A stretch of DNA of 64,000 nucleotides from a virus (IMGVR_UViG_3300006052_000001), one strand, 5' to 3'; positions 15,027-29,073 are shown, counted from the first letter of the stretch. Numbers and translations: made by a program. Notes: generated by a model from the letters alone, not told the origin.

Positions 15027-15028
15027 AA

Positions 15029-16889: not shown

Positions 16890-16921
16890 CGCAACAACTA
16901 AATAATATCTCGGAGGCTCAT

Positions 16922-17171: not shown

Positions 17172-17185
17172 CCCTTCGGGGCTTT

Positions 17186-17257: not shown

Positions 17258-17288
17258 CGCTTGGGAAGCTGATTTTCAGGAGGTAAAC

Positions 17289-17462
17289 ATGGGTTTGTCT
17301 GAGTGGATTCCTAGGGAAATGCGCCAGGCCAATGAGGCTAGGCACAAAAGAGAGCGCGAGATGGCTCGTATGGGTCTTATTGAGTGGCTGTTGAAAGACC
17401 ACGCAGACGACCCAATACCAGAAGAGAAGAAAAGCTGGCTTAGAAAACAGCTTGAGAAATGA
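17289..17462 (+). CDS. small charged protein (57 aa)
   Basis: CAGGAGG RBS then ATG. Confidence 0.45.
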   Translation: MGLSEWIPREMRQANEARHKREREMARMGLIEWLLKDHADDPIPEEKKSWLRKQLEK

Positions 17463-17616
17463 GAAGACATGATAGGTAACTTGCTTCACCAGATTGCGGC
17501 AGCGATTCATCTGTACGAGATTGGTGGTGCCCGCAACCTACCCGGACTGATTCATTTTATTAATCAAACTTGCGAGCATATCACGGATATCATCAGGACA
17601 CGCAAGTAGAAAAAAT

Positions 17617-17689
17617 GCGGGTATAATTCAGAGGATAGAATATTCGTTTCCTAAACGAACAGTCGGGAGTTCGAATCTCTCTACTCGCA
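17617..17689 (+). tRNA. tRNA-Arg (CCT)
   Basis: acceptor GCGGGTA/TACTCGC, D ATTC/GAAT, loop TTCCTAA. Confidence 0.8.
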
Positions 17690-17757
17690 CAGAGGTAATG
17701 GGAAAAACCCTCTGGACCTTACGAGGCTCACAAATACCAGTAAATATTTCCCGTCAA

Positions 17758-17830
17758 GGTGGCATAGCATAGTGGTTAATGCACCAGCCCGTCAAGCTGG
17801 ATTACGAGGGTTCGAATCCCTTTGTCATCG
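17758..17830 (+). tRNA. tRNA-Asp (GTC)
   Basis: D GCAT/ATGC, loop CCGTCAA (C33), T-loop GGTTCGAATCC. Confidence 0.7.
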
Positions 17831-17928
17831 CTCACTTAGGTATACAGTTGTAGCTGCCGCCGATATAGAAGCGTAGGTGACGTGGAGCAGTGGCTCACTG
17901 ATCAGGCAACTGTACACCGGAATTCTGC

Positions 17929-17999
17929 CGCTGGTTCCTGAGTTGACATATGGGGCTTGGTACGCTTCAGAGCCGGGTTTGATTCCCGGTGGCGGCTCT
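17929..17999 (+). tRNA. tRNA-like element (possible Thr-GGT, aberrant D-arm and T-loop)
   Basis: acceptor GCCGCTG/TGGCGGC, T-arm CCGGG-TTTGATT-CCCGG, candidate anticodon arm GGGGC-TTGGTAC-GCTTC; D-arm does not pair. Confidence 0.3.
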
Positions 18000-18012
18000 T
18001 GGTTCTAAACTT

Positions 18013-18083
18013 GCCCCATAAGCATTAAGGTGATGCAGAAGACTTTTAATCTTCGGAAGAGCGGTCGGTACGTTCATGGGGTA
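18013..18083 (+). tRNA. tRNA-Lys (TTT) with non-canonical T-loop
   Basis: acceptor GCCCCAT/ATGGGGT, D GCAT/ATGC, arm GAAGA-CTTTTAA-TCTTC; T-loop GTCGGTA. Confidence 0.55.
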
Positions 18084-18094
18084 CGCACGGACTT

Positions 18095-18167
18095 GGGCCG
18101 GTAATTCAGCGGTGAGAAATTCCGTCTTATAAGCGGGAAGTCCTAGGTTCAACTCCTAGTCGGCCTA
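18095..18167 (+). tRNA. tRNA-Ile (TAT)
   Basis: 73-nt canonical cloverleaf; loop CTTATAA; T-arm CTAGG-TTCAACT-CCTAG. Confidence 0.6.
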
Positions 18168-18185
18168 CTTAGCCTTGGAGGGTTA

Positions 18186-18557
18186 ATGAATAGCTGGTAT
18201 CATGCAAAATCTGCCGCCCATAAGTGGGGAGGCAAACCAGAAGATTACATAGAAATAGAAGAGTTCATAGACTCTTCTAAAAAGGTAATAGGCGATTCCC
18301 GCCACAGATCAATGTATCATCACACTTTAGGTGTGTGGCTGTGCCAGGAAATTTTCGGCAGGACAATTCAGGTGGCTGAACATAAGGTAGTTCCTGTTCG
18401 CCTGATAGCTGAGCAGCATATCATAGAAGACCTTGGATGGCTGCCATCTCCTGCTGATTACATAAACAACATGAACTTGGTGCCGTGGATGAGCGGCGCT
18501 CAGAAAAAGACTTACTCACTCGATGAAATTTTAGATGCAGGAGGACTCATTGGATAA
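18186..18557 (+). CDS. hypothetical protein
   Basis: 123-aa ORF, GGAGGG RBS. Confidence 0.5.
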   Translation: MNSWYHAKSAAHKWGGKPEDYIEIEEFIDSSKKVIGDSRHRSMYHHTLGVWLCQEIFGRTIQVAEHKVVPVRLIAEQHIIEDLGWLPSPADYINNMNLVPWMSGAQKKTYSLDEILDAGGLIG

Positions 18558-19122
18558 TGAAGACGGCGTTCTAGGTCTGCCGGTTAAAGGCAGTATAAGC
18601 CACTATGGAACTAAAGTTGAGCAGCTACCTACTGAGCAATTGCTAGAAGCAATTAAGGCTTTGCTTGAAGACGACAAGATAGGCACTTTCGGATGGGTTC
18701 AGCAAACTCCGTATTTTAATGACGGTGACGCTTGTGAGTTTGGTGTTAAGATGGTATGGGTTCGCCCTGCTGTTTCTGACAGTGACAGAAGAACACTTTC
18801 TGTTTCGCCTAATATGCTCAAACCCGGTGACATTATTGAAGCTACTTCGGATGAGGATGAATACGAATTCCTGACAGTATCTCGTCGTATAGAAGATATT
18901 GAAGAGCTAGACGAATACTACGAAGACAGTGACGACTACAAGTACGAAGTAAGAACGTATGCTTACGGTGCTGAGTCAAAGTCACCCGAGCATCATTTAG
19001 CTCTAGCTAAAATGCTAGAGAGTGGTCATTACGATATCTGGCTGGAAAATACTTTTGGTGACCCTGCTAGAGTAGTTTTCCATAAGGACCACATTGAGAT
19101 CGAGTTCTACGATCACGACTGA
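18535..19122 (+). CDS. acidic hypothetical protein
   Basis: 195-aa ORF overlapping previous 3' end. Confidence 0.5.
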   Translation: MQEDSLDNEDGVLGLPVKGSISHYGTKVEQLPTEQLLEAIKALLEDDKIGTFGWVQQTPYFNDGDACEFGVKMVWVRPAVSDSDRRTLSVSPNMLKPGDIIEATSDEDEYEFLTVSRRIEDIEELDEYYEDSDDYKYEVRTYAYGAESKSPEHHLALAKMLESGHYDIWLENTFGDPARVVFHKDHIEIEFYDHD

Positions 19123-19170
19123 TATGTTATACTAGTACCAGAGAAGCCGACTCTTATAAAATCGGCGCAT

Positions 19171-19242
19171 GGGCTGTTGGCATGAAGGGGAAGCACTTGC
19201 TTTGCACGCAAGCACATAAGGGTTCGAATCCCTTACGGTCCA
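19171..19242 (+). tRNA. tRNA-Ala (TGC)
   Basis: arm CTTGC-TTTGCAC-GCAAG, T-loop GGTTCGAATCC, acceptor GGGCTGT/ACGGTCC with two GU pairs. Confidence 0.65.
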
Positions 19243-19426
19243 CGATCAGCTAGAGTAATAGACTGGTAATCTATGAGGGTACTGATAGAATGACGGAATC
19301 TATTTTCAGTCGTATTGGACCGTCCGCGATTAGAAATGGCTGAAAGAATATTTCTCCGGAAAAGTAGACGAGTAGGGGCTGTTTACCAACAGTCTATTTT
19401 CTGAAAGCGAAATAACGACGAAATAT

Positions 19427-19501
19427 CTGGGTATCGCCTAGTTTGGTATGGCACCTGATTTGGGGTCAGGAATAGCGCAGGTTCAAATCCTGCTACTCAG
19501 A
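19427..19501 (+). tRNA. tRNA-Pro (TGG)
   Basis: acceptor CTGGGTA/TACTCAG, arm CCTGA-TTTGGGG-TCAGG (G37), long D-loop. Confidence 0.65.
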
Positions 19502-19505
19502 CGGT

Positions 19506-19543
19506 GGAGGGGTGGTCTAGACCACCCCTCCAAACCCATTTTA
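19506..19543 (+). terminator. 12-bp perfect hairpin, terminator-like
   Basis: GGAGGGGTGGTC-TA-GACCACCCCTCC then AAACCCATTTT. Confidence 0.5.
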
Positions 19544-19595
19544 GGAGGAAAGTGTGTGGTAGAATGTAAGTGGAATATTCCGATTCGAAAGGACC

Positions 19596-19976
19596 ATGAA
19601 AATGGCACTTACAGTTAAGACTCTATCGAACTACCCTCAGTTTGGTAACGCTCTTGGCCTGACAAACGTGGACGCATCTGCATTCACGTTCACTAATGGT
19701 GTTTCTACTACATACACAGGTTATGTAGCAGGATACCTTGATGGTGAAGGTCGCGCTAAGCTATTCTACACTGATGGTCAGTCAGTTGCCCTTCCTTCTA
19801 TGGTTAAGGCTACTCAGGTATCTCAGGTAGACGCAGCAGGTAACACAAAGACTGGTGGATACTACATCACTCTTGGTTCATGGGCATCTGCTTCTCCTGA
19901 CTCAGCATCAGCTAACTCAGAGATTTACCTAGACCAGATGGGCATGATCATCGCCGCTTCCACAGCATATGGGTGA
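19596..19976 (+). CDS. Thr/Gly-rich small protein with hydrophobic C-terminus (paralog of 21063..21686)
   Basis: 126 aa; similar N-terminus and C-terminal ...AASTAYG tail to the 21063 ORF. Confidence 0.5.
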   Translation: MKMALTVKTLSNYPQFGNALGLTNVDASAFTFTNGVSTTYTGYVAGYLDGEGRAKLFYTDGQSVALPSMVKATQVSQVDAAGNTKTGGYYITLGSWASASPDSASANSEIYLDQMGMIIAASTAYG

Positions 19977-19999
19977 TCACAAAAAAGTTTTAAAACGGC

Positions 20000-20029
20000 T
20001 TGACAGACCGCTCCCGGTCTGGTAGGCTG
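20000..20029 (+). promoter_or_regulatory. promoter, TTGACA-N14-TGgTAGGCT
   Basis: conserved family; precedes structured leader and tRNA-Tyr. Confidence 0.55.
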
Positions 20030-20032
20030 TTC

Positions 20033-20110
20033 TACAGAGCGAGGGTCCGTTGCTAAGCGAACGCATGAAACACGGCTACGGACTTAGAAATGTACAAGAC
20101 CCTCGCTCTT
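20033..20110 (+). ncRNA. structured leader / candidate small RNA
   Basis: 12-bp long-range helix AGAGCGAGGGTC...GACCCTCGCTCT enclosing about 50 nt; contains GGGTCCG. Confidence 0.3.
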
Positions 20111-20114
20111 CCAA

Positions 20115-20195
20115 TGCGGTTTACTCAAGCGGCCAACGAGATTTGACTGTAAATCAAATGCGAAAGCTACGGGGGTTCGAATCCCTCAACCGCAA
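20115..20195 (+). tRNA. tRNA-Tyr (GTA)
   Basis: acceptor TGCGGTT/AACCGCA, loop CTGTAAA, long variable arm. Confidence 0.8.
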
Positions 20196-20470
20196 CGTTA
20201 ATCAGACAACTGAGGCTGGCTGATTAAAACGGGACACGTTGACAGCGTGAACTTATACATACCGGATAGATAGCCCGTATACAGGCCGGTACTGCTTTCC
20301 GTAACTTACTGTCAATAAGTTGCAGATAAGTCTTAGCCTAGGCGGAAAACGGCTTTGACAATAACCGCTCTTTCCCTTGTGGTCAGAGTCTAAATATTTT
20401 TTCTCTGGTGGTAGTCAGGCAACATATAGGGTCTGACAAGTGTACAAGGGTGGCTAGGTACACAACTTTT

Positions 20471-20553
20471 GCCCCGTTGGCGAAACGGCAGACGCGCTGG
20501 TCTTAGGAACCAGTTCCAGTTATGGAGTGAGGGTTCAAATCCCTTGCGGGGTA
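20471..20553 (+). tRNA. tRNA-Leu (TAG)
   Basis: class II; arm CTGGT-CTTAGGA-ACCAG, long variable arm, T-loop GGTTCAAATCC. Confidence 0.7.
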
Positions 20554-20566
20554 CGTATTAAAACTT

Positions 20567-20638
20567 GGGTTGTTAGCTCAGTTGGTAGAGCGCTGGTCTG
20601 AAGAACCAGGCGGATAGGTTCGATCCCTATACTTCCCA
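20567..20638 (+). tRNA. tRNA-Phe (GAA)
   Basis: D GCTC/GAGC, arm CTGGT-CTGAAGA-ACCAG; acceptor has two U-U mismatches. Confidence 0.65.
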
Positions 20639-20643
20639 CTTAT

Positions 20644-20716
20644 GGCGTCTTAGTCCAACGGCAGAGACAATACACTCAAAACGTATCAAGTTTGGGTTCA
20701 AATCCCAAAGACGCTA
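20644..20716 (+). tRNA. class-I tRNA with anticodon CAA (atypical)
   Basis: 72-nt cloverleaf, 5-nt variable loop, loop CTCAAAA, A73. Confidence 0.55.
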
Positions 20717-20739
20717 CTTTAATAGGCTGATTTAGATAA

Positions 20740-20812
20740 GGCTCTGTATCCCAATGGCAGAGGAAGAGAACTTAAAATTCTTTCAGTAAGGGTTCGACTC
20801 CCTTCAGAGCTA
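20740..20812 (+). tRNA. class-I tRNA with anticodon TAA (atypical)
   Basis: 73-nt cloverleaf, short variable loop TCAGT, loop CTTAAAA, A73. Confidence 0.55.
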
Positions 20813-20833
20813 CGCCAATTTTAGGAGGTTAAA

Positions 20834-21022
20834 ATGGAAATTGAGAAAGCAGAAGTCACTTTTATGACAGCGAATGAGCTAAGAAAACTCGCTGACGCTT
20901 TAGATGATTTTCCGCTTTATCAAGGAGGCGTCTATTACAATGGTGAAAAGGGTCGTGTCTGTGTCATTACAGATAACACAGTAGCTCTAGTCTCTAATTT
21001 TGCAAGACCCTCTTCGCAGTAG
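20834..21022 (+). CDS. small hypothetical protein (62 aa)
   Basis: TAGGAGGTTAAAATG. Confidence 0.45.
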   Translation: MEIEKAEVTFMTANELRKLADALDDFPLYQGGVYYNGEKGRVCVITDNTVALVSNFARPSSQ

Positions 21023-21062
21023 GGTACAATAGAGTCAGAATATTTCCGAGAAAGGTCTTATT

Positions 21063-21686
21063 ATGGCTCTATCTATCGCAACTTTGTCGGGCTTCCCAGT
21101 AGCTAATACTACTTTTGCCTCAACAAAGGTTCCATCTTTTTACCCAACTGGTGTCGCCGTAACTGGTACTAACAGCCCTTCGCCAACAGTGGCAGCAACT
21201 TACTCATACTCGCTTAGCTCAACTTTCCCGTACAACGGAAAGTATGTTTACACAGCGGGTGCTAACGTATGGGTTGCTGGTATTATTGACTCTCAGGGTG
21301 TTGTACCTTCACGTATCTTCTATGCGAACAATGGTTCGGGATACTACACAAGTACTCAGCCACTACCAACACTTCTGAATGTAATTCAGAACCAGTACAC
21401 AGACCCTTACGGATTAACTGAGTACGGTGGCTACGTTGTTACTCTAACTCCTGCTGAGCCTGGTCAGGATGCTGGTTCACCTTCATCAACAGGTAACCTT
21501 AACCAGTTCGGTCTGACAAACGCAACTTCTCAGTTCCCTAACGAGCCTATTCTTGTACCAGCACAGGGTTATCCTTCTGGTGTAGGAACAGGACCAAGCC
21601 CAACATCAGGATACCCACAGCCTTACATGACATTCTATGTGTCAATGGCAGCTATGCTAATCCTGGCTTCTACACAGTACGGGTGA
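21063..21686 (+). CDS. Thr/Ser/Gly/Pro-rich protein with hydrophobic C-terminus (paralog of 19596..19976)
   Basis: 207 aa; ends MAAMLILASTQYG. Confidence 0.5.
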   Translation: MALSIATLSGFPVANTTFASTKVPSFYPTGVAVTGTNSPSPTVAATYSYSLSSTFPYNGKYVYTAGANVWVAGIIDSQGVVPSRIFYANNGSGYYTSTQPLPTLLNVIQNQYTDPYGLTEYGGYVVTLTPAEPGQDAGSPSSTGNLNQFGLTNATSQFPNEPILVPAQGYPSGVGTGPSPTSGYPQPYMTFYVSMAAMLILASTQYG

Positions 21687-21875
21687 TCTGAATGGCTATT
21701 GTTTACAATCAGGTAAGCGTGGATGACACAGCTATTGGTGCCTATGCCCTAAACTGGTCACAGACTGCATGGACAGTGCAGACACTAGTTTCTGCGGCTC
21801 AGGTAACTGCTACTGGCGGAACATACGCTTAATAAATGTGCCCTAGAACCGAGGCCAGAACATATCGGTTCACAT

Positions 21876-21947
21876 GTGATCGTAGCTCAACGGTAGAGCA
21901 CTACGTTGCCAACGTAGCGGTTACGGGTTCAAATCCCGTTGGTCACT
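21876..21947 (+). tRNA. tRNA-Gly (GCC)
   Basis: acceptor GTGATCG/TGGTCAC, D GCTC/GAGC, arm CTACG-TTGCCAA-CGTAG. Confidence 0.8.
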
Positions 21948-21971
21948 CGCAATTTTTAAAGGAGGAATAAA

Positions 21972-22967
21972 TTGACACCTAACTATATTAACCATATCGT
22001 TTTAGTGTTAGATGCGTCATCTAGCATGACCAATCATGCTAAGAAACTAATCGAAGTGGCAGACAGTCACGTAGCTTACTTAGCCCAGAGGTCAAAAGAT
22101 TTAGACCAGGAAACACGTATCACCGTCTACTCGTTTAGCGATAGGAACAGTGCCCGTTGTCTTGTCTATGACAAAGACGTTCTGCGTATGCCAAGTATTG
22201 CTAATCTGTATAAGACCAATGGAATGACGGCTCTGGTAGATGCTACCATCCTGGCTATTGAAGACCTTCACCTAACCCCTCAGAAGTACGGCGAACACGC
22301 TTTTCTTATCTACGTGCTAACTGACGGTCAGGAGAATGACTCTCACGCCAGACCAGATGTTCTTAAGAACAAGATTGCTGCTCTTCCTAATCACTGGACT
22401 CTTGCGGCTTTCGTTCCTAACCAGCACGGTATCTTTGAAGCTAAGAAATTTGGTTTTCCGCCGAACAACATTGCTATCTGGGATACTACTTCTGTAGCTG
22501 GAATGGTTGAAGTTGGCAACACAATCAAGAAGTCAACTGAGCAGTTCATGGTTAACAGGACCAAGGGTATCCGAGGCACCACTAACCTATTCCAGCTTAA
22601 CGTTCTGTCCCCAGATGTCATTGAAGCGTCTTTGCCAAGTATTCCGCCAAGTGAGTTCCGTATGATTCCTGTTCGTCAGGAAGGAAGAATTGACGACACA
22701 GTACTGAATGAGCTAGGCATACCCTACGCTGTAGGAAAAGCGTTCTATCAGCTAACAAAGACTGAGACTATTCAGCCCCAGAAGGAAATTGCTCTTCTGG
22801 CAAATGGCAGAGTCCACGTTGGCAGCAACGCTCGTAAACTTCTAGGACTTCCAGATGACCATGTTAAGGTCAAGCCTGGTGACCATCCTGGTTACACTAT
22901 CTTCGTGCAAAGCACAAGTGTTAACAGGAAGCTACTAGCAGGAACAAACTTGCTAGTATTTAAGTAG
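21972..22967 (+). CDS. von Willebrand factor A (vWA) domain protein
   Basis: AAAGGAGG RBS, TTG start; N-terminal MIDAS motif LVLDASSSM with TDGQEND. Confidence 0.6.
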   Translation: MTPNYINHIVLVLDASSSMTNHAKKLIEVADSHVAYLAQRSKDLDQETRITVYSFSDRNSARCLVYDKDVLRMPSIANLYKTNGMTALVDATILAIEDLHLTPQKYGEHAFLIYVLTDGQENDSHARPDVLKNKIAALPNHWTLAAFVPNQHGIFEAKKFGFPPNNIAIWDTTSVAGMVEVGNTIKKSTEQFMVNRTKGIRGTTNLFQLNVLSPDVIEASLPSIPPSEFRMIPVRQEGRIDDTVLNELGIPYAVGKAFYQLTKTETIQPQKEIALLANGRVHVGSNARKLLGLPDDHVKVKPGDHPGYTIFVQSTSVNRKLLAGTNLLVFK

Positions 22968-22993
22968 GAGTTATATTGAACATTAGATCAAAG

Positions 22994-23614
22994 ATGGCTG
23001 TTGCTCTTGTAGCAGCAGTTAGTATCATCAGTCCAGTTGTGGCTACCACCACCGCATATGCTTCTCCTGTAGCAGTGTCAGCACCGCTAATTAGCGGTCA
23101 GCAAGTTTGCTCAGACACTGGTGCAGGTCTATGTATACAAGGTGCTGCCGGTGACGGTGATGGAGTATTAAATAACAACAGCCAGCCGAGTTCCGATATC
23201 CAAAGATGGAAAGTTGTTTTCGCCACTAGTTCTTGCAACAGCGGCGATGTATCCTACCCCGGTGATCAGTATGGTGGCACTACTTGGTGCCCATTTACAA
23301 ATCACTCTTATGACACTCAGTACGATGGGTACGCTATTACTCACTTTACTGAGCAGTACGATTCTAATTATTGTATAGGTGCAAAGACTTTCGGGCCACC
23401 AATTGCTGACACTTTGCCAACAGTGGTAAATTGCGGTGGAGGTACGGGAGTTAACTTCGTGCAGACTGGCACATACACATACACAAATGTATACCTGTCG
23501 AATACCGCAGGTATCCCCGGAAAATACGATCTTTGCTCAGACGGATTTTCCGGTGATAACATGGTATTCGAAACTTACCAGGCTGTCTATTGTCAGCTAG
23601 CCTGGGTCGGTTAA
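22994..23614 (+). CDS. secreted Cys-rich protein with ricin-type (QxW) lectin-like motifs
   Basis: ATG within ORF 22976..23614; predicted signal peptide; many paired Cys; QRWKV motif. Confidence 0.5.
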   Translation: MAVALVAAVSIISPVVATTTAYASPVAVSAPLISGQQVCSDTGAGLCIQGAAGDGDGVLNNNSQPSSDIQRWKVVFATSSCNSGDVSYPGDQYGGTTWCPFTNHSYDTQYDGYAITHFTEQYDSNYCIGAKTFGPPIADTLPTVVNCGGGTGVNFVQTGTYTYTNVYLSNTAGIPGKYDLCSDGFSGDNMVFETYQAVYCQLAWVG

Positions 23615-23623
23615 AGAAAATTT

Positions 23624-23663
23624 CCACAAGGGCTTGACAGACCGGCCCGAGTGTGGTACAGTA
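23624..23663 (+). promoter_or_regulatory. promoter, TTGACA-N14-TGgTACAGT
   Basis: conserved family. Confidence 0.55.
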
Positions 23664-23734
23664 GTAACTGTGAGCGGGGAGGGTTCGTTCTTTCCATGCT
23701 AGGTTCCTTCAGACCTAAACCGTTCACAGCTTAT

Positions 23735-23812
23735 GCCGCTGTTACTCTGCTGGCAAGGGGTAACCAGATTTTCACTCTGGGTAGGACGAGGGTTCAATTC
23801 CCTTCAGCGGTA
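23735..23812 (+). tRNA. tRNA-Glu (TTC), probable
   Basis: acceptor GCCGCTG/CAGCGGT, arm CCAGA-TTTTCAC-TCTGG, T-arm GAGGG-TTCAATT-CCCTT; D region irregular, 7-nt variable loop. Confidence 0.5.
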
Positions 23813-23900
23813 CGAGTGTTAGATGCGAAGACACAGGGTTACTTCTATCATATGGGATAATCAAAGACACCCTAGTCGCTTTATTCACTAACACATTAGA

Positions 23901-23974
23901 CGCGGGTTAGAGAAGTTCGGTATCTCACCAGCCTCATAAGCTGACATTGCATGGGTTCAAATCCCATACCCGCT
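23901..23974 (+). tRNA. tRNA-Met/Ile2 (CAT)
   Basis: D GAGA/TCTC, loop CTCATAA, T-loop GGTTCAAATCC; 1-72 mismatch. Confidence 0.65.
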
Positions 23975-24052
23975 ACTTAGGTTAGGCCAGGAGTCAAATT
24001 GCCCGACGTAGCTAGTTCGATTCCAGCATCATACTTGGTGTATAGTAGGGTC

Positions 24053-24083
24053 TTGACAGTGTGGTATCCATTAGGATATTATG
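24053..24083 (+). promoter_or_regulatory. sigma70-like promoter TTGACA-N18-TATTAT
   Basis: canonical -35 and -10. Confidence 0.5.
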
Positions 24084-24119
24084 GACGGGACTGTTGAAAT
24101 AAACAGCGAACAGCCTAAC

Positions 24120-24227
24120 CTTTAAGTTTAAAGTTCTAGATGCGGTTATTTGAGTTTCATCAACGCCAGGGACCGACACACTCAAGTATGTGTGTCCTCT
24201 AGAACTATTGTTGGTCGGTCCCACCCT
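24120..24227 (+). ncRNA. structured RNA candidate (interleaved long-range helices)
   Basis: AGTTCTAGA(24132)/TCTAGAACT(24198); GGGACCGACA(24168)/TGGTCGGTCCC(24213); central CACAC...GTGTG hairpin; sits between the promoter and tRNA-Met. Confidence 0.3.
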
Positions 24228-24300
24228 AGTCGGTAAGCCAGAGGCATAAGGCACTAGTCTCATAAGCTAGTATTCATCGGTTCGAATCCGATACTGACGA
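24228..24300 (+). tRNA. tRNA-Met/Ile2 (CAT), second copy
   Basis: arm CTAGT-CTCATAA-GCTAG, T-arm ATCGG-TTCGAAT-CCGAT; 1-72 mismatch. Confidence 0.6.
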
Positions 24301-24445
24301 CTTGGTTTGATGTGAAGAATACGGTTACTTCTAATAAAGGGAACTGGATGTTATAGGTTCGAATCCTATCTGACCGGCTTCATCGGTCAGTAGCTCAATG
24401 GTAGAGCGCTAGTCATATAAAAAGCTCCGTTTTCGATTTTTTCTC
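24301..24445 (+). ncRNA. YrlA-type Y-RNA-like tRNA-mimic, unit 1
   Basis: box TGATGTGAAGAATACGGTTACTTC(24309-31); T-arm ATAGG-TTCGAAT-CCTAT; capped acceptor hairpin CTGACCG-gcttcat-CGGTCAG (24369-91); D-arm TA-GCTC-AATGGTA-GAGC; ends pair GGTTTGA/TCAAACC. Confidence 0.45.
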
Positions 24446-24454
24446 AAACCTATC

Positions 24455-24596
24455 ATCTTGCTAGATGTGATAGAACAAACAGTTACTTCTCATTCAAAGA
24501 GAGAGTTTGCGGTTCGAGTCCGCATGTCGGCTCCACTTGCCGATATAGCTTAATGGTAAAGCGCTAAAAACACTGTAGTTCGCTTTGTACCCTAGC
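24455..24596 (+). ncRNA. YrlA-type Y-RNA-like tRNA-mimic, unit 2
   Basis: box TAGATGTGATAGAA...GTTACTTC; anticodon-like hairpin TTCTC-ATTCAAA-GAGAG (TCA); T-arm TGCGG-TTCGAGT-CCGCA; acceptor hairpin TGTCGGC-tCCActt-GCCGATA; D-arm TA-GCTT-AATGGTA-AAGC; ends pair TTGCTAG/CTAGCAA. Confidence 0.45.
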
Positions 24597-24603
24597 AAAT
24601 AAC

Positions 24604-24721
24604 TTAATATCTGATGCGATAGAATTTGGTTACTTCTAGTGAAAATGGCAAACACAATCAACATCAAATTGATATATCTGGGTTCAAACCCCAGGAAGAT
24701 TAAAACACCAAGTTCGCATTT
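24604..24721 (+). ncRNA. Y-RNA-like repeat unit 3 (no acceptor/D module)
   Basis: box CTGATGCGATAGAATTTGGTTACTTC; T-arm-like CTGGG-TTCAAAC-CCCAG; terminal pairing GATGCGA/TCGCATT. Confidence 0.35.
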
Positions 24722-24737
24722 GTTCTCAGGTATATTT

Positions 24738-24808
24738 GGCACCTTGACCGAGAGGCTAGGTGGCGGTCTGCAAAACCGTATACAGCAGTTCAATTCTGCT
24801 AGGTGCCT
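24738..24808 (+). tRNA. tRNA-Cys (GCA)
   Basis: acceptor GGCACCT/AGGTGCC, arm GCGGT-CTGCAAA-ACCGT, T-arm AGCAG-TTCAATT-CTGCT. Confidence 0.7.
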
Positions 24809-24811
24809 CTT

Positions 24812-24932
24812 TACTAGTTGCGTCTGAGTTCGGTTACTTCAGTTCGAATCTGATATGCCCCTCCAATCATGGGGCATAGCGGTCTGGCCGCTAAACCACC
24901 TGAAAGGGTGTCCCACCCGAAGTCGTTTTATC
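24812..24932 (+). ncRNA. Y-RNA-like repeat unit 4
   Basis: partial box GGTTACTTC; T-arm-like TCAG-TTCGAAT-CTGA; acceptor hairpin ATGCCCC-tCCAatcat-GGGGCAT (24855-77); terminal pairing GAGTTCGG/CCGAAGTC. Confidence 0.35.
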
Positions 24933-24954
24933 CTCTAGTATTAAAATTAAATAG

Positions 24955-25070
24955 CTTTACCAGATGTGAAGACATACAGATACTTCGCTACCAAAATAGG
25001 CGGGCCAGGGTTCGACTCCCGGCCTAATGGGACGGTTCCCTTTCTGTGGTCGATAATGTTCTCTGGTATT
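24955..25070 (+). ncRNA. Y-RNA-like repeat unit 5 (degenerate)
   Basis: box CAGATGTGAAGACATACAGATACTTC; T-arm-like CAGGG-TTCGACT-CCCGG; terminal pairing TACCAGA/TCTGGTA. Confidence 0.3.
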
Positions 25071-25139
25071 TTTACTACCGTCAGAAGCGTAGTTATCGGA
25101 TACTTCATCGCTGGTTAACATACCTGTGCAACAATAGAC

Positions 25140-25167
25140 CGATTACGTCTTTTACTCTGACGGTTTT
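25140..25167 (+). terminator. weak terminator-like hairpin plus T-tract
   Basis: CGTC-ttttactct-GACGG then TTTTTTG; also a long-range CCGTCAGA/TCTGACGG pairing. Confidence 0.35.
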
Positions 25168-25187
25168 TTGTATTCTAGGAGGTAAGA

Positions 25188-25466
25188 ATGAAAACTAGTT
25201 CTGCTTATGTAGATCCTTTCTCTGAAATGGAAAGATGGTTTTACAATCTTCCCTGCCGTTATCTAAGTAATATCTGTCATTGTGGCTCAGGTAAGCCGGT
25301 TCTATATTGGTCACCAGATGACGGAACAGGTTGTGAAGATTGCAGAGGATCGTTGTTTGTTTATATTCCGGCTGCAACGATGTACAACATAATGAATAAA
25401 TTTAACTTCCCTCCCGAACTTCAGAAAGCTGTATATGACCAGCTAGACGGAGATTTGGCAAGATAA
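25188..25466 (+). CDS. Cys-rich small protein (92 aa)
   Basis: TAGGAGGTAAGAATG; CHCGSG...CEDC. Confidence 0.5.
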   Translation: MKTSSAYVDPFSEMERWFYNLPCRYLSNICHCGSGKPVLYWSPDDGTGCEDCRGSLFVYIPAATMYNIMNKFNFPPELQKAVYDQLDGDLAR

Positions 25467-25482
25467 AAAGGAGATGTGAATT

Positions 25483-27117
25483 ATGGGAAAGCTAAACAAG
25501 TACACACCAAAGACAGTTACTTCACCTATTCAGATGAGCACGGTTCCTAACGCTCATACTGCTCTAGGCGGAATTGGTTACGCACCAGCAAACGCTGAGA
25601 GCGAGCTATTCGATCTTGGTATCAACCTTTTTGCCGGTGAGGACAACTACCATGAGTCAGGACAGGCAAGAGATAATCGTTTCACCCGTCTAGTTGAGGC
25701 TGTTGCGGTTAGCAATCCTGCTTGGATTACCGGATTCCTGGGCTGGCTAAGGTCAGAGGGAAACATTCGTACTGCTTCTATTATGGGTGCGGTTGTAGCT
25801 GTACATGCCCGTCTTAACGATCCAAGGTCTGTTGAGGCAGACAAGAACAGTGCCTCTCACGGTCCCTCTTGGAACCGTAGAATCGTTGATGCTGTTTGTC
25901 AGCGTGCAGATGAGCCTGGTGAGTTTATCGCTTACTGGACACAGAGATATGGTAAGAACATTCCTATGCCAGTAAAGCGTGGTCTATCTGACGCTGCTCG
26001 CAGGCTATACAACGAGTACTCATTTATGAAGTATGACAGTGACAAGGCTGGCTGGCGTATTGGTGACGTTATTGAGTTTGTTCACCCTAAGCCAGTTGAC
26101 AACGATCAGGCAGCGCTTTTCGGTTACGCGATTTCTGCCCGTCATGGAAATGCCTTTGAGGACATGTCTAGGCTTAGCAGAATTGAGGCCAACAAGGCTC
26201 TTAGGGAAGAGTTCAAGACTAACCCTGATGTTCTGCTAAACACAGGATTTCTGAAGAAGGCCGGTTTCACCTGGGAGGATGCTCTGTCTCTGGCAGGTAC
26301 AAAGGTGGATAAGGCTAAGCTATGGGAGTCTTTGATCTTCGCAAAGGCAGTGCCTATTTTCGCGCTGATCAGGAATCTAAGGAACATGGAGCAGGCAGGA
26401 ATTAGCCGCGCTGCTATGACAGAAGTTTGCAACACTATTGCTAACCCAGAAGTGATTGCAAAGTCTCGTCTATTCCCATTCCAGATTTACGCGGCTCACA
26501 AGTACGCTCAGTCAATGCACTGGAAGTCTGCTCTTGAGGATGCTATGACATATTCAACCCTGAATGTGCCACAGCTTGACGGAGACACTTTGCTGCTTAT
26601 TGATGCTTCTGGCTCAATGTTCGGCACAAAGCTTTCCGGCAAGAGCGATCTAGAGCGCGTTGAAGCTGCTGCTGTATTTGGTGCTGCTTTCGCTGTGCGT
26701 AACCCTGATACAACAAAGGTAGTGACTTTCTCTAACGACACCAAGATCGTTCCGGTGACAAAGGGAATGTCAATGCTTGGGCTGACAGATAAGATCATGC
26801 GTACTGCCGCAACTCAGCAAAGTGGTACTGCTACTGCTGCTGCTCTTAAGGCAAGTTACACAGGACAGAAGAGAGTTATCATCGTAACTGATGAGCAGTC
26901 TTCTGGTTCTTACGGTTACTACTCAAGAGGTAGCGTTTCTGATAAGGTTCCTGACAGTACATACCTATACTCATTCGACCTTGCTGGACACCGCATTTCT
27001 GACATTCCTTCGGGAAAGAATCGCAGGCACCAGCTTGGAGGTTTGACTGACAAGTCATTCGGCATGATCCCGCTCCTAGAGCGTGGTAACAGTGCAAGAT
27101 GGCCTTGGGAAAAGTAA
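25483..27117 (+). CDS. rsr: Ro60/Rsr-like ribonucleoprotein (TROVE-like N-terminal region plus C-terminal vWA)
   Basis: 544 aa; C-terminal vWA with MIDAS LLLIDASGSMFG; the large N-terminal region fits the Ro60 TROVE+vWA architecture; follows the tRNA-like array; GGAG RBS. Confidence 0.55.
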   Translation: MGKLNKYTPKTVTSPIQMSTVPNAHTALGGIGYAPANAESELFDLGINLFAGEDNYHESGQARDNRFTRLVEAVAVSNPAWITGFLGWLRSEGNIRTASIMGAVVAVHARLNDPRSVEADKNSASHGPSWNRRIVDAVCQRADEPGEFIAYWTQRYGKNIPMPVKRGLSDAARRLYNEYSFMKYDSDKAGWRIGDVIEFVHPKPVDNDQAALFGYAISARHGNAFEDMSRLSRIEANKALREEFKTNPDVLLNTGFLKKAGFTWEDALSLAGTKVDKAKLWESLIFAKAVPIFALIRNLRNMEQAGISRAAMTEVCNTIANPEVIAKSRLFPFQIYAAHKYAQSMHWKSALEDAMTYSTLNVPQLDGDTLLLIDASGSMFGTKLSGKSDLERVEAAAVFGAAFAVRNPDTTKVVTFSNDTKIVPVTKGMSMLGLTDKIMRTAATQQSGTATAAALKASYTGQKRVIIVTDEQSSGSYGYYSRGSVSDKVPDSTYLYSFDLAGHRISDIPSGKNRRHQLGGLTDKSFGMIPLLERGNSARWPWEK

Positions 27118-27130
27118 TTTACAGAAACTC

Positions 27131-27160
27131 TTGACAGCAGGGTCCGTCCGTGGTAGGCTA
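27131..27160 (+). promoter_or_regulatory. promoter, TTGACA-N14-TGgTAGGCT
   Basis: conserved family. Confidence 0.55.
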
Positions 27161-27197
27161 GTGCTTGCCACGGACGGACGGCACCAGGAGGAACAAG

Positions 27198-27377
27198 ATG
27201 CCCGAGCTAATTATAGGTTCTTTAACAAGCGTGACAGCAGGATTTATGATCCTGTTCGGAATGTACTACAGCCGCACGCATCCTTCGCCTAAAGTCCTTA
27301 AGAAAAAATTGAGGAAAAGGTACATCAAGTCAGGGCACCTTGAAGACCTTGACGAATTAGTTAGGTTGGAGGGGTAA
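27198..27377 (+). CDS. small single-pass membrane protein (59 aa)
   Basis: CAGGAGGAACAAGATG; internal ATG of ORF 27165..27377; TM then Lys-rich tail. Confidence 0.45.
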   Translation: MPELIIGSLTSVTAGFMILFGMYYSRTHPSPKVLKKKLRKRYIKSGHLEDLDELVRLEG

Positions 27378-27378
27378 T

Positions 27379-28296
27379 ATGAGCATGTTTATGTTCATTC
27401 TTTCTATGATCCTTTTTCTGGGAGCAATTGCTACAGGTGTATACTTTGCTATCAGTATGGAGCTATCAGCCGCAGGAATTGGAGCAGCGCTTCTAGTTGT
27501 TGGCCTGATTTTCTTCGGCTGGTCAGGGGTCAGGGAAGTCCCGACCAATAGTGTTGGTGTTCCAACAGCATTTGGTAGTGTTGAGCCTGCGGTAAATCCC
27601 GGTTTTCATTGGATGGCTCCGTGGACTAGAGTAAACATCATTGACAAGACTGTGCAGACTACTTACTTCACTGGTGGTTTTGACAAGAACGGCGTTTGCA
27701 CAAACGGTCTGGATGTTCGTATTGGTGGTCAGCAGCAGGCATGTGGTGACATGACAATTAAGTGGCAGGTCACTGATGCTGGTGCCCCAGTACTATTTAA
27801 GCAGTATAGTAACGGCGGAGATGTTATGAGCAGCATTCAGAATTCGCTGGTTATCACTGATCTGCAAACAGTAGCGAACAAGGTACTTGGTGACTACAAT
27901 CCTATTCAGGACGTGGCGCTAACTACTGGTGCTGGAAACAGCCAGTTCTCTACATTCGGTCCTCTTATCGAAGCTCAGATGAAGCAGCTTTTCGGCCAGG
28001 ATATTAAGGTCGTAGGCTTCAATATGTCTTTGCTTCATTATGACACTGCAACACAGACTAGGCTGAATGCTATTCAGCAGCAGTACGGTGACACCGCTAT
28101 TGCTCTTGAACTGCTTAAGACTAACCAGGCGCAGGCTAAGGCTAACGCAGCTATTGGTACTCCAAGCCCGTCGCAGATGCAGTATCTTTGCTTCCAGCTT
28201 ATTCAGACAGCAGAGAAGACCGGATATATGGGCCTTCCCGGTTCGCTTAGCTGTGGTACAAGCAGCGGCACAACCATTGTGTCTGCCCATCCATAA
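27379..28296 (+). CDS. SPFH/band-7-like (prohibitin/stomatin family) membrane protein
   Basis: two N-terminal TM segments then a conserved periplasmic-type domain; GGAGGGG RBS. Confidence 0.5.
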   Translation: MSMFMFILSMILFLGAIATGVYFAISMELSAAGIGAALLVVGLIFFGWSGVREVPTNSVGVPTAFGSVEPAVNPGFHWMAPWTRVNIIDKTVQTTYFTGGFDKNGVCTNGLDVRIGGQQQACGDMTIKWQVTDAGAPVLFKQYSNGGDVMSSIQNSLVITDLQTVANKVLGDYNPIQDVALTTGAGNSQFSTFGPLIEAQMKQLFGQDIKVVGFNMSLLHYDTATQTRLNAIQQQYGDTAIALELLKTNQAQAKANAAIGTPSPSQMQYLCFQLIQTAEKTGYMGLPGSLSCGTSSGTTIVSAHP

Positions 28297-28302
28297 AGTA
28301 GC

Positions 28303-28332
28303 TTGACAAACGGGGAGTGTCGTGTTACTATA
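28303..28332 (+). promoter_or_regulatory. promoter, TTGACA-N14-TGtTACTAT
   Basis: conserved family; precedes the tRNA-Gly/Ser/Lys group. Confidence 0.55.
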
Positions 28333-28352
28333 AATATGACACTCCCCCACAT

Positions 28353-28423
28353 GCGTCTTTAGTTTAGAGGCAAAACCGCTGACTTCCAATCAGCCATCGC
28401 GGGTTCGATTCCCGCAAGACGCT
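28353..28423 (+). tRNA. tRNA-Gly (TCC)
   Basis: acceptor GCGTCTT/AAGACGC, arm GCTGA-CTTCCAA-TCAGC, T-arm GCGGG-TTCGATT-CCCGC. Confidence 0.8.
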
Positions 28424-28434
28424 CGCACAGTTAT

Positions 28435-28521
28435 GGAATCTTCGCCTAGTCTGGTTTATGGCGCGTCACTGCTAATGACGTTGAGGTAATACTCTCGTAG
28501 GTTCAAATCCTACAGATTCCG
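28435..28521 (+). tRNA. tRNA-Ser (GCT)
   Basis: class II; acceptor GGAATCT/AGATTCC, arm CGTCA-CTGCTAA-TGACG, long variable arm. Confidence 0.8.
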
Positions 28522-28544
28522 CTCTGGATTGCGCCGTGCAGGGC

Positions 28545-28612
28545 ACGAACAGGTCTTGAAAACCTGGGTATGGTGAAGAGCCATAGGGGATCGTTACCTC
28601 CGCTCTCCGCGT
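28545..28612 (+). pseudogene. truncated tRNA-Ser (TGA) remnant
   Basis: arm CAGGT-CTTGAAA-ACCTG, variable arm, 3' acceptor GCTCTCC; no matching 5' acceptor or D-arm. Confidence 0.35.
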
Positions 28613-28622
28613 AGTAAATTAA

Positions 28623-28694
28623 GCCTCTTTAGCACAGCGGTAGTGCAGCAGACTCTTAATCTGTGGGTCATTGGTTCGAATCCAATAAGGGGTA
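28623..28694 (+). tRNA. tRNA-Lys (CTT)
   Basis: D GCAC/GTGC, loop CTCTTAA, T-arm ATTGG-TTCGAAT-CCAAT; G1-U72. Confidence 0.7.
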
Positions 28695-28772
28695 CGCTAC
28701 AGTAGGAAATGAAAACCCCCGTATCTGATAGCACCACCGGTAACCAGTCCGGGGCGTAAACGGGGTTACAAT

Positions 28773-28846
28773 GCGAGCATAGAGTAATAGGTTAACTCAC
28801 CACTCCCTCAAAGTGGAGACTGCGGGTTCGATTCCCGTTGTTCGTA
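28773..28846 (+). tRNA. tRNA-Glu (CTC), probable
   Basis: acceptor GCGAGCA/TGTTCGT, arm CCACT-CCCTCAA-AGTGG (C33), long D-loop. Confidence 0.5.
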
Positions 28847-28980
28847 CCCGGCGCAACAGCTAGGTAATTAATGAAGCACAAGTGCATGTATCTTCTTCCC
28901 GGCAAGGTAGTGATACAATCAACCGAAGATGGATACAAGCTTCAGCAGCTATGGCTTTGTATTATCTGCCGGGAAACTAA

Positions 28981-29052
28981 GGGCGGTTAGCTCAGTGGAA
29001 GAGCAGGACTTTTACACAGTCAAGGTCAAAGGTTCAATCCCTTTACTGCCTA
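28981..29052 (+). tRNA. tRNA-Val (TAC)
   Basis: D GCTC/GAGC, loop TTTACAC, T-arm AAAGG-TTCAATC-CCTTT. Confidence 0.75.
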
Positions 29053-29073
29053 CGTAGCGGTTCCGCTATAGAA

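Follow-up and report, generated by a model that had tools for sequence, protein, structure and literature searches.

The DNA upstream of the Ro60-type gene of an uncultured phage of ~116 kb (IMGVR_UViG_3300006052_000001) raises the question of which RNAs it encodes and whether they are partners of the phage protein. The analysed stretch of this genome, here called the window, is 64 kb long. The original prediction was of five tandem, tRNA-mimicking Y-RNA-like units in 24301-25070. Those five (U1-U5) are present, but the array is larger, with eight units over 23817-25162; U0, the degenerate U0b and U6 had been missed (Table 1). The most probable reading (probability of roughly 0.8) is that the region encodes eight small RNAs of the bacterial Y-RNA kind which are the predicted partners of the phage Ro60. 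It is an expanded and diversified array of predicted phage Y RNAs, the kind itself being already known.

The large gene downstream of the array encodes, as judged from its sequence, a Ro60/Rsr-type protein with a TROVE ring region and a C-terminal vWA domain. The Pfam profile PF05731 matches with 62.9 bits (E 4e-17) against a gathering cutoff of 23, confirming the TROVE assignment of the N-terminal region, and the identical database protein P0001 carries a precomputed PF05731. The vWA/MIDAS motif that had been recognized near the C-terminus, DASGSM, occupies residues 374-379, with D374, S376 and S378 invariant in 18 homologues. Residues 290-536 align with the phiLo Ro60 structure, and the matches of the protein to Pfam VWA_2 and vWA_Ro60 are below the cutoffs. 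The protein also matches PHROG 850 (E 2.6e-41) and the PDB entries 9L5Y/9KOP (E 3.6e-23) and 1YVP (E 3.7e-6). The best solved relative is the Ro60 of Thermus phage phiLo, and the Xenopus and human Ro60 structures can be aligned as well. The alignments to 9L5Y, 9KOP and 1YVP suggest a ring-shaped HEAT-repeat fold which would bind Y RNA on its outer surface. The protein is ~40% identical to Streptomyces and Gordonia phage proteins named "Ro-like RNA binding protein". Neither Pfam nor PHROG gives a match for the Cys-rich ORF that separates the array from the Ro gene; on other contigs with the same Ro protein it is among the called genes.

The units are located 321-1666 nt before the Ro start codon and on the same strand, which places them within the 4 kb, same-strand limit used for YrlA (Chen et al. 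2014). Real tRNA genes are interleaved with them: the stretch from U0 to U1 includes two tRNA-Met genes and that from U3 to U4 a tRNA-Cys gene, and tRNA-Glu is found just upstream. The units do not repeat one another in sequence; only the two scaffold halves are common to them, and the modules are dissimilar.

Table 1. Features of the array and of the adjoining Ro60-type gene in the 64-kb window.
Feature	Position	Strand	Basis
Sigma-70-like promoter match TTGACA-17-TACAGT, TG-extended	23634-23662	+	Consensus scan; upstream of tRNA-Glu
tRNA-Glu(UUC)	23735-23813	+	ARAGORN; Rfam tRNA 35.8 bits; synteny
U0, 77 nt	23817-23893	+	Box HMM E 1.2e-5; model R1 32.3 bits, E 8e-6; fold
tRNA-Met(CAU), first	23901-23976	+	ARAGORN; Rfam tRNA 51.2 bits
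Sigma-70-like promoter match TTGACA-18-TATTAT, 11/12	24053-24082	+	Consensus scan; best of region
U0b, 71 nt, degenerate	24134-24204	+	Model R1 25.7 bits, E 4e-4; alternative folds
tRNA-Met(CAU), second	24228-24301	+	ARAGORN; Rfam tRNA 45.9 bits
U1, 147 nt, YrlA-type	24304-24450	+	Rfam YrlA 36.8 bits, E 5.5e-6; fold; RNAalifold
U2, 139 nt, YrlA-type	24459-24597	+	Partial Rfam YrlA 23.2 bits; fold; RNAalifold
U3, 125 nt, normal-order tRNA mimic	24608-24732	+	ARAGORN; Rfam tRNA 35.5 bits; fold
tRNA-Cys(GCA)	24738-24809	+	ARAGORN; Rfam tRNA 56.3 bits; syntenic in 8/8 phages
U4, 129 nt	24812-24940	+	Box HMM E 2.2e-3; fold -43 kcal/mol, z -3.55
U5, 111 nt	24958-25068	+	Box HMM E 9.7e-6; fold
U6, 84 nt, last unit	25079-25162	+	Box HMM E 1.8e-4; model R1 15.9 bits; fold z -2.70
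G + six-T run, probable intrinsic terminator	25163-25169	+	Read from sequence, directly 3' of U6 terminal stem
ORF, 92 aa, Cys-rich	25188-25466	+	Between array and Ro gene
Ro60/Rsr-type protein, 544 aa	25483-27117	+	PF05731, PHROG 850, PDB matches

In each unit a terminal stem leads into a large internal loop (AUGYGA... on the 5' side, UUAUUCUC on the 3' side), after which come a second stem and UUACUUC. In the canonical units the two ends form a terminal stem of 6-7 bp, the second stem is 5-7 bp, UUACUUC is constant, and the loop is asymmetric, with 5' (A)UGYGA(A)G facing 3' ..CG..UUAUUCU. The 5' box that the units were proposed to share is real, but makes up only one half of a conserved scaffold whose other half is a corresponding 3' box. 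It is carried by all five of the units first described rather than by four; the U4 copy has diverged to CTAGTTGCGTCTGAGTTCGGTTACTTC. The box HMM finds seven copies on the + strand between 23819 and 25108 (E 1e-5 to 2e-3), and no copy in the rest of the 64-kb window on either strand, where the best match has an E of 0.17. The cores are UGCGAAG in U0, UGUGAAG in U1 and U5, UGYGAUAG in U2 and U3, UGCGUCUG in U4 and AGCGUAG in U6. The published GNCGAAN0-1G motif close to the 5' end of Y RNAs is related to the core UGYGA(A/U)(A)G without being identical, and CGAA itself is found only in U0. Unconstrained MFE folding closes the terminal stem in 7/7 units folded, with modest single-unit z-scores of -1.3 to -3.6. 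The general bacterial Y-RNA layout of paired ends, internal loop and second helix is found in the seven window folds and in the 64 units described below, and the predicted scaffold matches the order of stem, bulge with a CGAA-like motif, and stem of known Y RNAs.

Pairing was assessed in 64 units from eight syntenic phages, a set that includes the seven canonical window units and leaves out U0b. The two stems (12 pairs) are paired in 90.9% of cases, compared with 67.3% in column shuffles and 28-43% with slid partners. Changes on both sides of a pair occupy 200 cells versus 71.5 in the shuffles, although such counts overstate the number of independent events because the set mixes paralogues and orthologues. 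The covariation score is 0.679 versus 0.245, and RNAalifold recovers the same two stems independently. Pairing was part of the score by which the 3' halves were first placed; a rerun with a position weight matrix, which has no pairing term and is a partial control, reproduced 58/64 of the calls. At the weight-matrix positions all six outer pairs form in 47/64 units, as against 6% for mismatched unit pairs. Covariation thus supports the pairing of the unit ends, and the outcome set in advance as fatal to the original prediction, tRNA debris without covariation, did not occur.

The modules distal to the scaffold differ. U1 has the terminal stem GGUUUGA/UCAAACC and, in order, a T-arm (24353-24369), a closed acceptor hairpin (24370-24390) and a D-arm (24393-24407). 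U2 has the stem UGCUAG/CUAGCA, followed by a T-arm (~24508-24524), an acceptor hairpin (~24524-24546) and a D-arm (24548-24562). The T-arms, the closed acceptor hairpins of U1, U2 and U4, and the D-arms of U1 and U2 all appear in the unconstrained MFE folds as had been proposed, but the complete YrlA order is limited to U1 and U2 and does not extend to the remaining six of the eight units. A search of the region with Rfam YrlA (RF02553) matched U1 (36.8 bits, E 5.5e-6 in a 1.7-kb search) and part of U2 (23.2 bits) and no other window unit; none of the units reaches the gathering score of 69 bits. Matches of 30-47 bits, also sub-threshold, occur among the ten loci scanned, with none in L002, L003 or L007. 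The YrlA-type units (n=11) have in common the T-arm and a 7-bp closed acceptor stem, and RNAalifold shows compensatory changes in 17/19 of their predicted pairs.

In U3 the scaffold surrounds a D-like arm, an anticodon-like arm and a T-arm in normal tRNA order, and the 4-bp acceptor borrows CUUC from the box. U4 and U5 combine a T-arm with other hairpins. U4 has the diverged 5' core UUGCGUCUG and then UUACUUC, on which a T-arm follows directly, a 7-bp closed acceptor-like hairpin and two more hairpins; units of its kind are found at L002 4609 and L003 3755. U5 consists of a hairpin, the T-arm-like hairpin GGCC-A-GGG UUCGACU CCCGGCC and a small GGGA/UCCC hairpin, with counterparts in L001, L002, L004, L006 and L007. 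The short modules of U0, U0b and U6 have no T-arm. U0 has a full scaffold (the UGCGAAG core, GGUUACUUC and 3' UUUAUUCAC) around a 24-nt hairpin, and similar units lie directly 3' of tRNA-Glu in L001, L002, L003 and L005. U0b has a degenerate scaffold in which UUUCAUC replaces UUACUUC, and in alternative folds its module pairs with the leader of the next tRNA-Met. The terminal stem of U6, CGUCAGA/UCUGACG, is richer in G+C, and its module is short.

The array is not a local oddity. It is conserved across a phage clade: the eight syntenic phages have 5-10 units each, and unit classes and their order are kept even though the Ro proteins are only 46-54% identical. In all of them tRNA-Glu is the upstream edge of the array, and the box is confined to the + strand of the gap upstream of Ro. 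TACTTC, with which the box ends on its 3' side, is found within 1 kb upstream of Ro in 71/75 actinobacterial genomes (mode 2 copies), compared with 0.14 per kb elsewhere, and upstream of Ro in 66/67 IMG/VR loci. The full box CCCGGUGCGAAG-N-CGGUUACUUC is present in 6/6 actinobacterial loci inspected, and the core at actinobacterial rsr loci is GGUGCGAAG. The sampled Ro60 loci mostly have 2-3 copies of the box, compared with eight units here. Northern probes for the Rsr-immunoprecipitated YrlA and YrlB of M. smegmatis have the reverse complements ..CCACUUCUAAU.. and ..CGACUUCAAGGUUCGACU.. (PMC4201824). These segments match U1 (GGUUACUUCUAAU) and U4 (UUACUUCAGUUCGAAU), and the part common to box and probes is ACUUC(UAAU).

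The scaffold could instead be a Ro-independent cassette for processing or stabilizing the tRNA-like RNAs of the tRNA island, in which case an RNase or some other RNA-binding protein would recognise the paired ends and loop and the linkage to Ro would be incidental. Real tRNA genes stand among the units and are probably co-transcribed with them, the L005 scaffold encloses a sequence scoring 67.7 bits as a tRNA, and the U0b module is able to pair with a tRNA-Met leader. However, the box occurs only in the gap directly upstream of Ro and is absent from the tRNA island at 13888-23700 and 28350-29053. TACTTC also accompanies bacterial Ro genes, in a scan blind to tRNA islands, and the ACUUC of the box is present in RNAs that co-precipitate with Rsr (PMC4201824), so this explanation is unlikely. 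It is very unlikely that the units are functionless, decaying tRNA-gene remnants with a repeated intergenic spacer. The tRNA parts in the modules, the ARAGORN call of one module as a tRNA and the degeneracy of U0b would fit such decay, but it does not yield closed acceptor hairpins, nor does it agree with a class order preserved among phages with such divergent Ro proteins; this reading is disfavoured because the stems stay paired through compensatory changes.

A box of ~30 bp that is conserved and spaced every 110-200 bp in non-coding DNA might also be a signal read at the level of DNA, for example a phage promoter, an operator or a recombination repeat. This is highly improbable, since the motif is strictly strand-specific, each copy is partnered by a 3' box at variable distance, and the flanks co-vary to keep Watson-Crick or G-U pairing, the latter being meaningful only in RNA. 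There is equally little to expect from the proposal that functional decoding tRNAs (e.g. a UGA suppressor) within long leaders and trailers are to be found among the units, with U3 as the foremost candidate. ARAGORN does call "tRNA-SeC(tca)" at 24630-24702 in U3 and Ile, Tyr and Stop(tta) in related units, with Rfam tRNA scores of 35-68 bits. Against this, U3 lacks the 7-bp acceptor stem, the U33 and the full-length model match of a tRNA gene: its acceptor is only 4 bp, its loop CAUCAAA has A for the universal U at position 33, and its 35.5-bit match covers model positions 4-67 only. Units of the U3 kind also preserve the D-arm and scaffold but vary in their anticodon (UCA, GAU, GUA, UUA), and the normal-order fold is restricted to this class, or 1/8 of the units in the window.

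The units are likely to be co-transcribed with the tRNA-Met, tRNA-Cys and adjacent tRNA-Glu genes as one or two precursors. The promoter match at 23634-23662 is a candidate start of such a precursor, although the number of sites in the promoter scan of the region is not above that in shuffles. The stem of U6 with its T-run is a probable intrinsic terminator, at which transcription would stop. A T-run also follows the last unit in L001, L002, L003 and L004; a generic terminator scan makes no call at 25163-25169 because the enclosed loop is long. tRNA-processing enzymes and trimming to the closed terminal stems may then free RNAs of 71-147 nt. Ro60 would dock on the shared scaffold, and the variable modules could equip a single Ro60 ring with several distinct partners or gates. 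Partners in characterised systems include PNPase and tRNA-recognising enzymes. It can be suggested, tentatively, that the Ro60/Y-RNA pair of this clade is a modular adaptor set whose modules recruit different host enzymes, or a set of decoys for tRNA-targeting anti-phage nucleases. A single ring of the phage protein would then carry as many as ten different Y RNAs; in the former case the recruits might be PNPase, the CCA-adding enzyme, RNase P or enzymes that modify tRNA. The fast-changing anticodon-like loops of the U3 class might reflect conflict with such nucleases.

The closest bacterial counterparts are YrlA and YrlB, which, like the window units, are encoded next to rsr on the same strand just upstream of the Ro60 orthologue (PMC4201824, RF02553). 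In both, the ends pair, and beyond an internal loop, whose motif in the window units is related to CGAA, there is a second helix; U1 and U2 also have the YrlA-type module of T-arm, closed acceptor stem and D-arm. Co-transcription of a Y RNA with tRNAs is known in D. radiodurans, and S. Typhimurium, M. smegmatis and D. radiodurans have two characterised Y RNAs apiece (PMC4201824). The window differs in having eight units, six of them without the full YrlA module, in U1/U2 scores of 23-37 bits versus 69, in its core sequence, and in the constant UUACUUC and 3' UUAUUCUC box, neither of which is in the Rfam YrlA consensus. Among phages, the Ro60 of Thermus phage phiLo binds two Y-like RNAs encoded upstream, Yrl1 and Yrl2, in which a bulge flanked by stems contains a CGAA motif; complexes of the RNAs with the host PNPase have been demonstrated as well (PMC12135203). 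The two systems share a phage Ro60 (PDB 9KOP, 9L5Y), upstream Y-like RNAs and the stem-bulge-stem layout; phiLo differs in having two RNAs rather than eight, only part of the protein aligns, the host lineage is unrelated, and the description of Yrl1 and Yrl2 used here mentions no tRNA-like module.

Units with the box and 3' box of the window number five in Streptomyces phage LuckySocke and four in Gordonia phage VanLee; they too lie upstream of a Ro gene, annotated as "Ro-like RNA binding protein", and sub-threshold YrlA matches are present. These phages have fewer units and their Ro proteins are only 38-40% identical to that of the window; none of the units is labelled as a Y RNA in the two records, and one of those in LuckySocke bears the annotation tRNA-Ser(gct). 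The metazoan Y RNAs (human Y1, Y3, Y4, Y5) are RNA polymerase III transcripts, have no tRNA-like module and show no detectable sequence similarity to the window units. The stem by which they bind Ro is a bulged helix that includes GGUCCGA (PMC4201824), a motif absent from the units here. They nevertheless resemble the predicted array in being paralogous small RNAs with one Ro60-binding stem and a distal loop which differs among them and selects partners.

The gene at 25483-27117 encodes a 544-aa protein which matches TROVE (PF05731) at 62.9 bits against a cutoff of 23 (E 4e-17), has weaker vWA matches and matches PHROG 850 'RNA-binding protein' (E 2.6e-41). The TROVE match bears out the Ro60-like identity that had been proposed for this gene. 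Phages of Streptomyces, Gordonia and Arthrobacter encode a 'Ro-like RNA binding protein' with which it shares 35-40% identity over the full length. The closest solved structures are those of Thermus phage phiLo Ro60 (9L5Y/9KOP, E 3.6e-23), followed by human and Xenopus Ro60 (E about 3e-6), and MIDAS residues D374, S376 and S378 show no variation across 18 homologues. The window is phage-like and has a tRNA island (13888-29053) of 30 ARAGORN calls, all on the + strand, 29 of which are at or above the Rfam tRNA gathering score. Megablast of window 23600-27200 found no similar DNA in GenBank phages. An identical Ro protein is found on contigs from metagenomes, the longest of them 116,018 bp. An IMG/VR search with the window Ro protein as single query found no close relative; an alignment of Ro proteins was needed as the query to retrieve related IMG/VR Ro loci.

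Motif GGTTACTTC forms a cluster at 23837-25106 ahead of the Ro gene. Seven + strand copies (starts 23819, 24306, 24460, 24610, 24814, 24960 and 25080) are matched by an HMM of the 5' box, whose best score over the rest of the 64 kb is only E 0.17. Every box has a partner 3' box (consensus UUAUUCUC), and the bases ahead of the 5' box have their complement directly behind this partner. In the degenerate eighth unit, U0b, UUACUUC is replaced by UUUCAUC. The covariance model of the joined scaffold halves picks up no units but the short-module ones, U0, U0b and U6; since it is unable to bridge modules of 57-95 nt, it is no census of the whole window. The original prediction of a five-unit array at 24301-25070 holds in that the array is real and its units are U1-U5, but the extent was too small, as eight units occupy 23817-25162.

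Features of the array and its surroundings in window coordinates; module classes were set by inspection, and those of the window are found again in other phages
Feature	Coordinates	Strand	Basis	Module class or remark
vWA/TerF-like protein gene	21972-22967		PHROG 26613	near array
tRNA-Glu	23735-23813			immediately 5' of array
U0	23817-23893	+	5' box and partner 3' box	short hairpin behind tRNA-Glu
tRNA-Met	23901-23976			true gene inside array
U0b	24134-24204		covariance model of joined scaffold halves, 25.7 bits, E 4e-4	degenerate eighth unit
tRNA-Met	24228-24301			second true gene inside array
U1	24304-24450	+	5' box and partner 3' box	YrlA-type
U2	24459-24597	+	5' box and partner 3' box	YrlA-type
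U3	24608-24732	+	5' box and partner 3' box	normal-order tRNA mimic, 4-bp acceptor using CUUC of box
tRNA-Cys	24738-24809			true gene inside array
U4	24812-24940	+	5' box and partner 3' box	T-arm directly 3' of box, then closed acceptor hairpin, other hairpins
U5	24958-25068	+	5' box and partner 3' box	hairpin, T-arm-like hairpin, small hairpin
U6	25079-25162	+	5' box and partner 3' box	short last unit, G+C-richer terminal stem, then T-run
Band_7/SPFH protein gene	27379-28296			near array

Seven further contigs, with Ro proteins 46-54% identical to that of the window, were compared (loci L001-L007). Synteny from tRNA-Glu(UUC) to Ro is common to the compared loci, and all contigs have a non-coding gap of 1.2-2 kb ahead of Ro with 5-10 box-bearing units each. 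The flanking vWA protein, Band_7 protein and RNase_H_2 exonuclease genes are present in several loci, not all, and L004 is without tRNA-Met. Band_7 is annotated 3' of Ro in L001, L003, L004 and L006; the vWA protein 5' of the array has a Pfam annotation only in L007, and four others have unannotated ORFs of similar size. The T-run behind the last unit is also found in L001-L004. In L005, the last unit (4928-5036) has a 3' half that runs 36 nt beyond the Ro start codon called at 5001, which is either a mis-called start or a unit overlapping the coding sequence.

The 64 units of these eight phages were cut to two scaffold halves and aligned, and 12 pairs of the terminal and second stems were scored. 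Standard pairs fill 90.9% of cells, compared to 67.3% in column shuffles and 28-43% with slid partners, and both sides have changed in 200 cells compared to 71.5 in shuffles, although, with units related as paralogues and orthologues, these cell counts are not numbers of independent events. The covariation score of 0.679 (0.245 in shuffles) is reached by 0 of 500 shuffles. Unprompted, RNAalifold finds both stems and lengthens the second by two covarying pairs. Because the 3' halves had first been placed using pairing, they were re-placed by a weight matrix that was built from the 8-nt box only and left out one locus at a time. The positions agree with the original in 58 of 64 units, and all six outer pairs form at the new positions in 47 of 64, compared to 6% for mismatched 5'/3' combinations. 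The terminal stems that had been noticed in the sequence are thus supported by covariation.

Unconstrained folds close the terminal and second stems in all seven canonical units (z-scores -1.3 to -3.6). A T-arm forms in each of U1-U5; U1, U2 and U4 also form a closed acceptor-like hairpin, and a D-arm is present in U1 and U2. The RNAalifold prediction for eleven units of YrlA type comprises the terminal stem, the T-arm and a closed acceptor stem of 7 bp, and 17 of its 19 pairs have compensatory changes. At gathering thresholds, tRNAs are the sole Rfam matches returned. Rfam YrlA has two matches short of its gathering score of 69: one spans the full model on U1 in a local search (36.8 bits, E 5.5e-6), and the other lies in the tRNA-like core of U2 (23.2 bits). 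The earlier interpretation as tRNA-mimicking Y-RNA-like units next to a Ro60-like gene is supported.

Other readings of the scaffold were considered. A hairpin inside the 5' box (GAAG/CUUC or GAUGYGA/UUACUUC) is rejected, since its 5' side varies while UUACUUC stays invariant and G6 is in every case a paired base of the terminal stem. A kink-turn or C/D-box for UGAUGUGA would require a GA that is missing from the opposite strand, and pairing of the U4 ACUUC with a downstream GAAGU is superseded by the covarying second stem UUCGG/CCGAA. By eye, several units allow a third helix of GYGA with a 3'-side UCGC, and the U6 fold has it as well; it is absent from the RNAalifold prediction on the MAFFT alignment, and its bases are left within the internal loop.

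Several units have been called or annotated as unusual tRNAs. ARAGORN calls the U3 module 'tRNA-SeC(tca)' (24630-24702); its acceptor has 4 bp and its position 33 is A. In relatives, U3-class units carry GAU, GUA and UUA under the calls tRNA-Ile(gat), tRNA-Tyr(gta) and tRNA-Stop(tta), and the L005 copy has a tRNA score of 67.7 bits. The A at position 33 and the differing anticodons make a decoding role unlikely; U3-class units are probably not decoding tRNAs. A Y-like unit with the box overlaps the tRNA-Ser(gct) annotated in Streptomyces phage LuckySocke (L008 3274-3347, record 10738-10811); this tRNA-Ser gives no match to Rfam tRNA at E 0.01 or better and is probably a wrongly annotated Y-like RNA. 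LuckySocke and phage Alone3 have five units each. Counts of tRNAs and inferences of suppressor tRNAs near Ro genes of large actinophages need checking.

The region also has other elements. The stretch from the first tRNA-Met to U0b holds a conserved structured element (23977-24125), with a closing stem GGUUAGGC/GCCUAACC that has a compensatory change in L001 3851-3987, a T-arm-like hairpin (GCUAG-UUCGAUU-CCAGC) and a fold of -48.9 kcal/mol (z -4.28). Neither the box nor an Rfam match was found in it, and the best promoter-like site of the region falls within it. The U0b module GGGACCGAC can pair with GUCGGUCCC, just 5' of ACCCU and tRNA-Met 24228 (24168-24222), which excludes closure of the U0b scaffold. 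This arrangement also occurs in L002 3529-3623, L005 3629-3736 and L007 3572-3692, and the U0b region may act as a switch that chooses between a Y-RNA fold and a pre-tRNA leader fold. The probable terminator of the array and the Ro gene are separated by a 92-aa Cys-rich ORF (25188-25466, CHCGSG...GCEDC) with no match in Pfam or PHROG; L003 has a similar sequence 5' of Ro, and other contigs that encode the same Ro protein also have the ORF called. Just 3' of its Ro gene, LuckySocke has two tRNA-Lys genes with an Rfam manA RNA match between them (L008 5467-5699, 47.8 bits against a gathering score of 55.2). A non-coding element common to L002 (~3960-4050) and L003 (~3010-3120), CCCGCUG ... AAGGUCAUACCUU.GAGCGGGAGC, has ends that pair and is absent from the window.

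Across the phage clade, a Ro60 gene is kept together with adjacent same-strand genes for structured RNAs, which have one covarying scaffold in common and tRNA-like modules of diverse kinds. It is likely, with a probability of about 0.8, that the array units are Ro60-partner Y-like RNAs. By analogy with D. radiodurans, S. Typhimurium, M. smegmatis and phiLo, the scaffold would be bound by Ro60, and the modules may tether or gate Ro60 relative to factors such as PNPase or, alternatively, mimic tRNA toward tRNA-recognising enzymes. The RNAs would be excised from a tRNA-containing precursor that ends with the stem of U6 and its U-run; the sites at 23634 and 24053 are promoter-like only by consensus match. 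With eight to ten paralogues sharing one scaffold and differing in module, the clade supplies at least 64 natural variants, which make each module's recruited partner a directly testable question. The constant elements AUGYGA, UUAUUCUC and UUACUUC are a natural dissection of candidate Ro-binding determinants, and the key AUGYGA ... GGUUACUUC ... UUAUUCUC is a simple, specific search for Y RNAs missed by the current Rfam model.

An expanded, diversified Y-RNA array is conserved in this clade of roughly 116-kb tRNA-rich phages. In characterised systems, a genome carries between one and a few Y RNAs, and the full-text literature searched reports neither an array of this size nor this scaffold definition. 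Y RNAs adjoining phage Ro genes are already established in 22 phages (Chen et al. 2014, PMC4201824), a Listeria phage has Y-RNA candidates next to its Ro gene (PMC12282133) and phiLo has two Y-like RNAs (PMC12135203). The + strand TACTTC lies just ahead of Ro in nearly all of 80 IMG/VR loci, usually in 2-3 copies. Four low-G+C loci (L010, L011, L013 and L045) have 6-10 copies, three of them on contigs of ~116 kb like the window's own. TACTTC is also found within 1 kb 5' of Ro in 71 of 75 actinobacterial genomes (mode 2, background 0.14 per kb), and the box in six actinobacterial loci inspected is CCCGGUGCGAAG-N-CGGUUACUUC. In M. smegmatis, YrlA and YrlB are bound by Rsr, as found by immunoprecipitation, and the reverse complements of their northern probes are TTACCACTTCTAATGGAATGGTC and TATCTGGCGACTTCAAGGTTCGACT (Chen et al. 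2014, PMC4201824); the former parallels GGTTACTTCTAATAAAGGG of U1 and the latter TTACTTCAGTTCGAATCTGA of U4. The unit layout of terminal stem, internal loop with a CGAA-like motif, second helix and module is that of the Rfam YrlA consensus and agrees with the description of phiLo Yrl1 and Yrl2 (PMC12135203). The window scaffold is homologous to the rsr-linked units of bacteria and is the actinobacterial Y-RNA scaffold.
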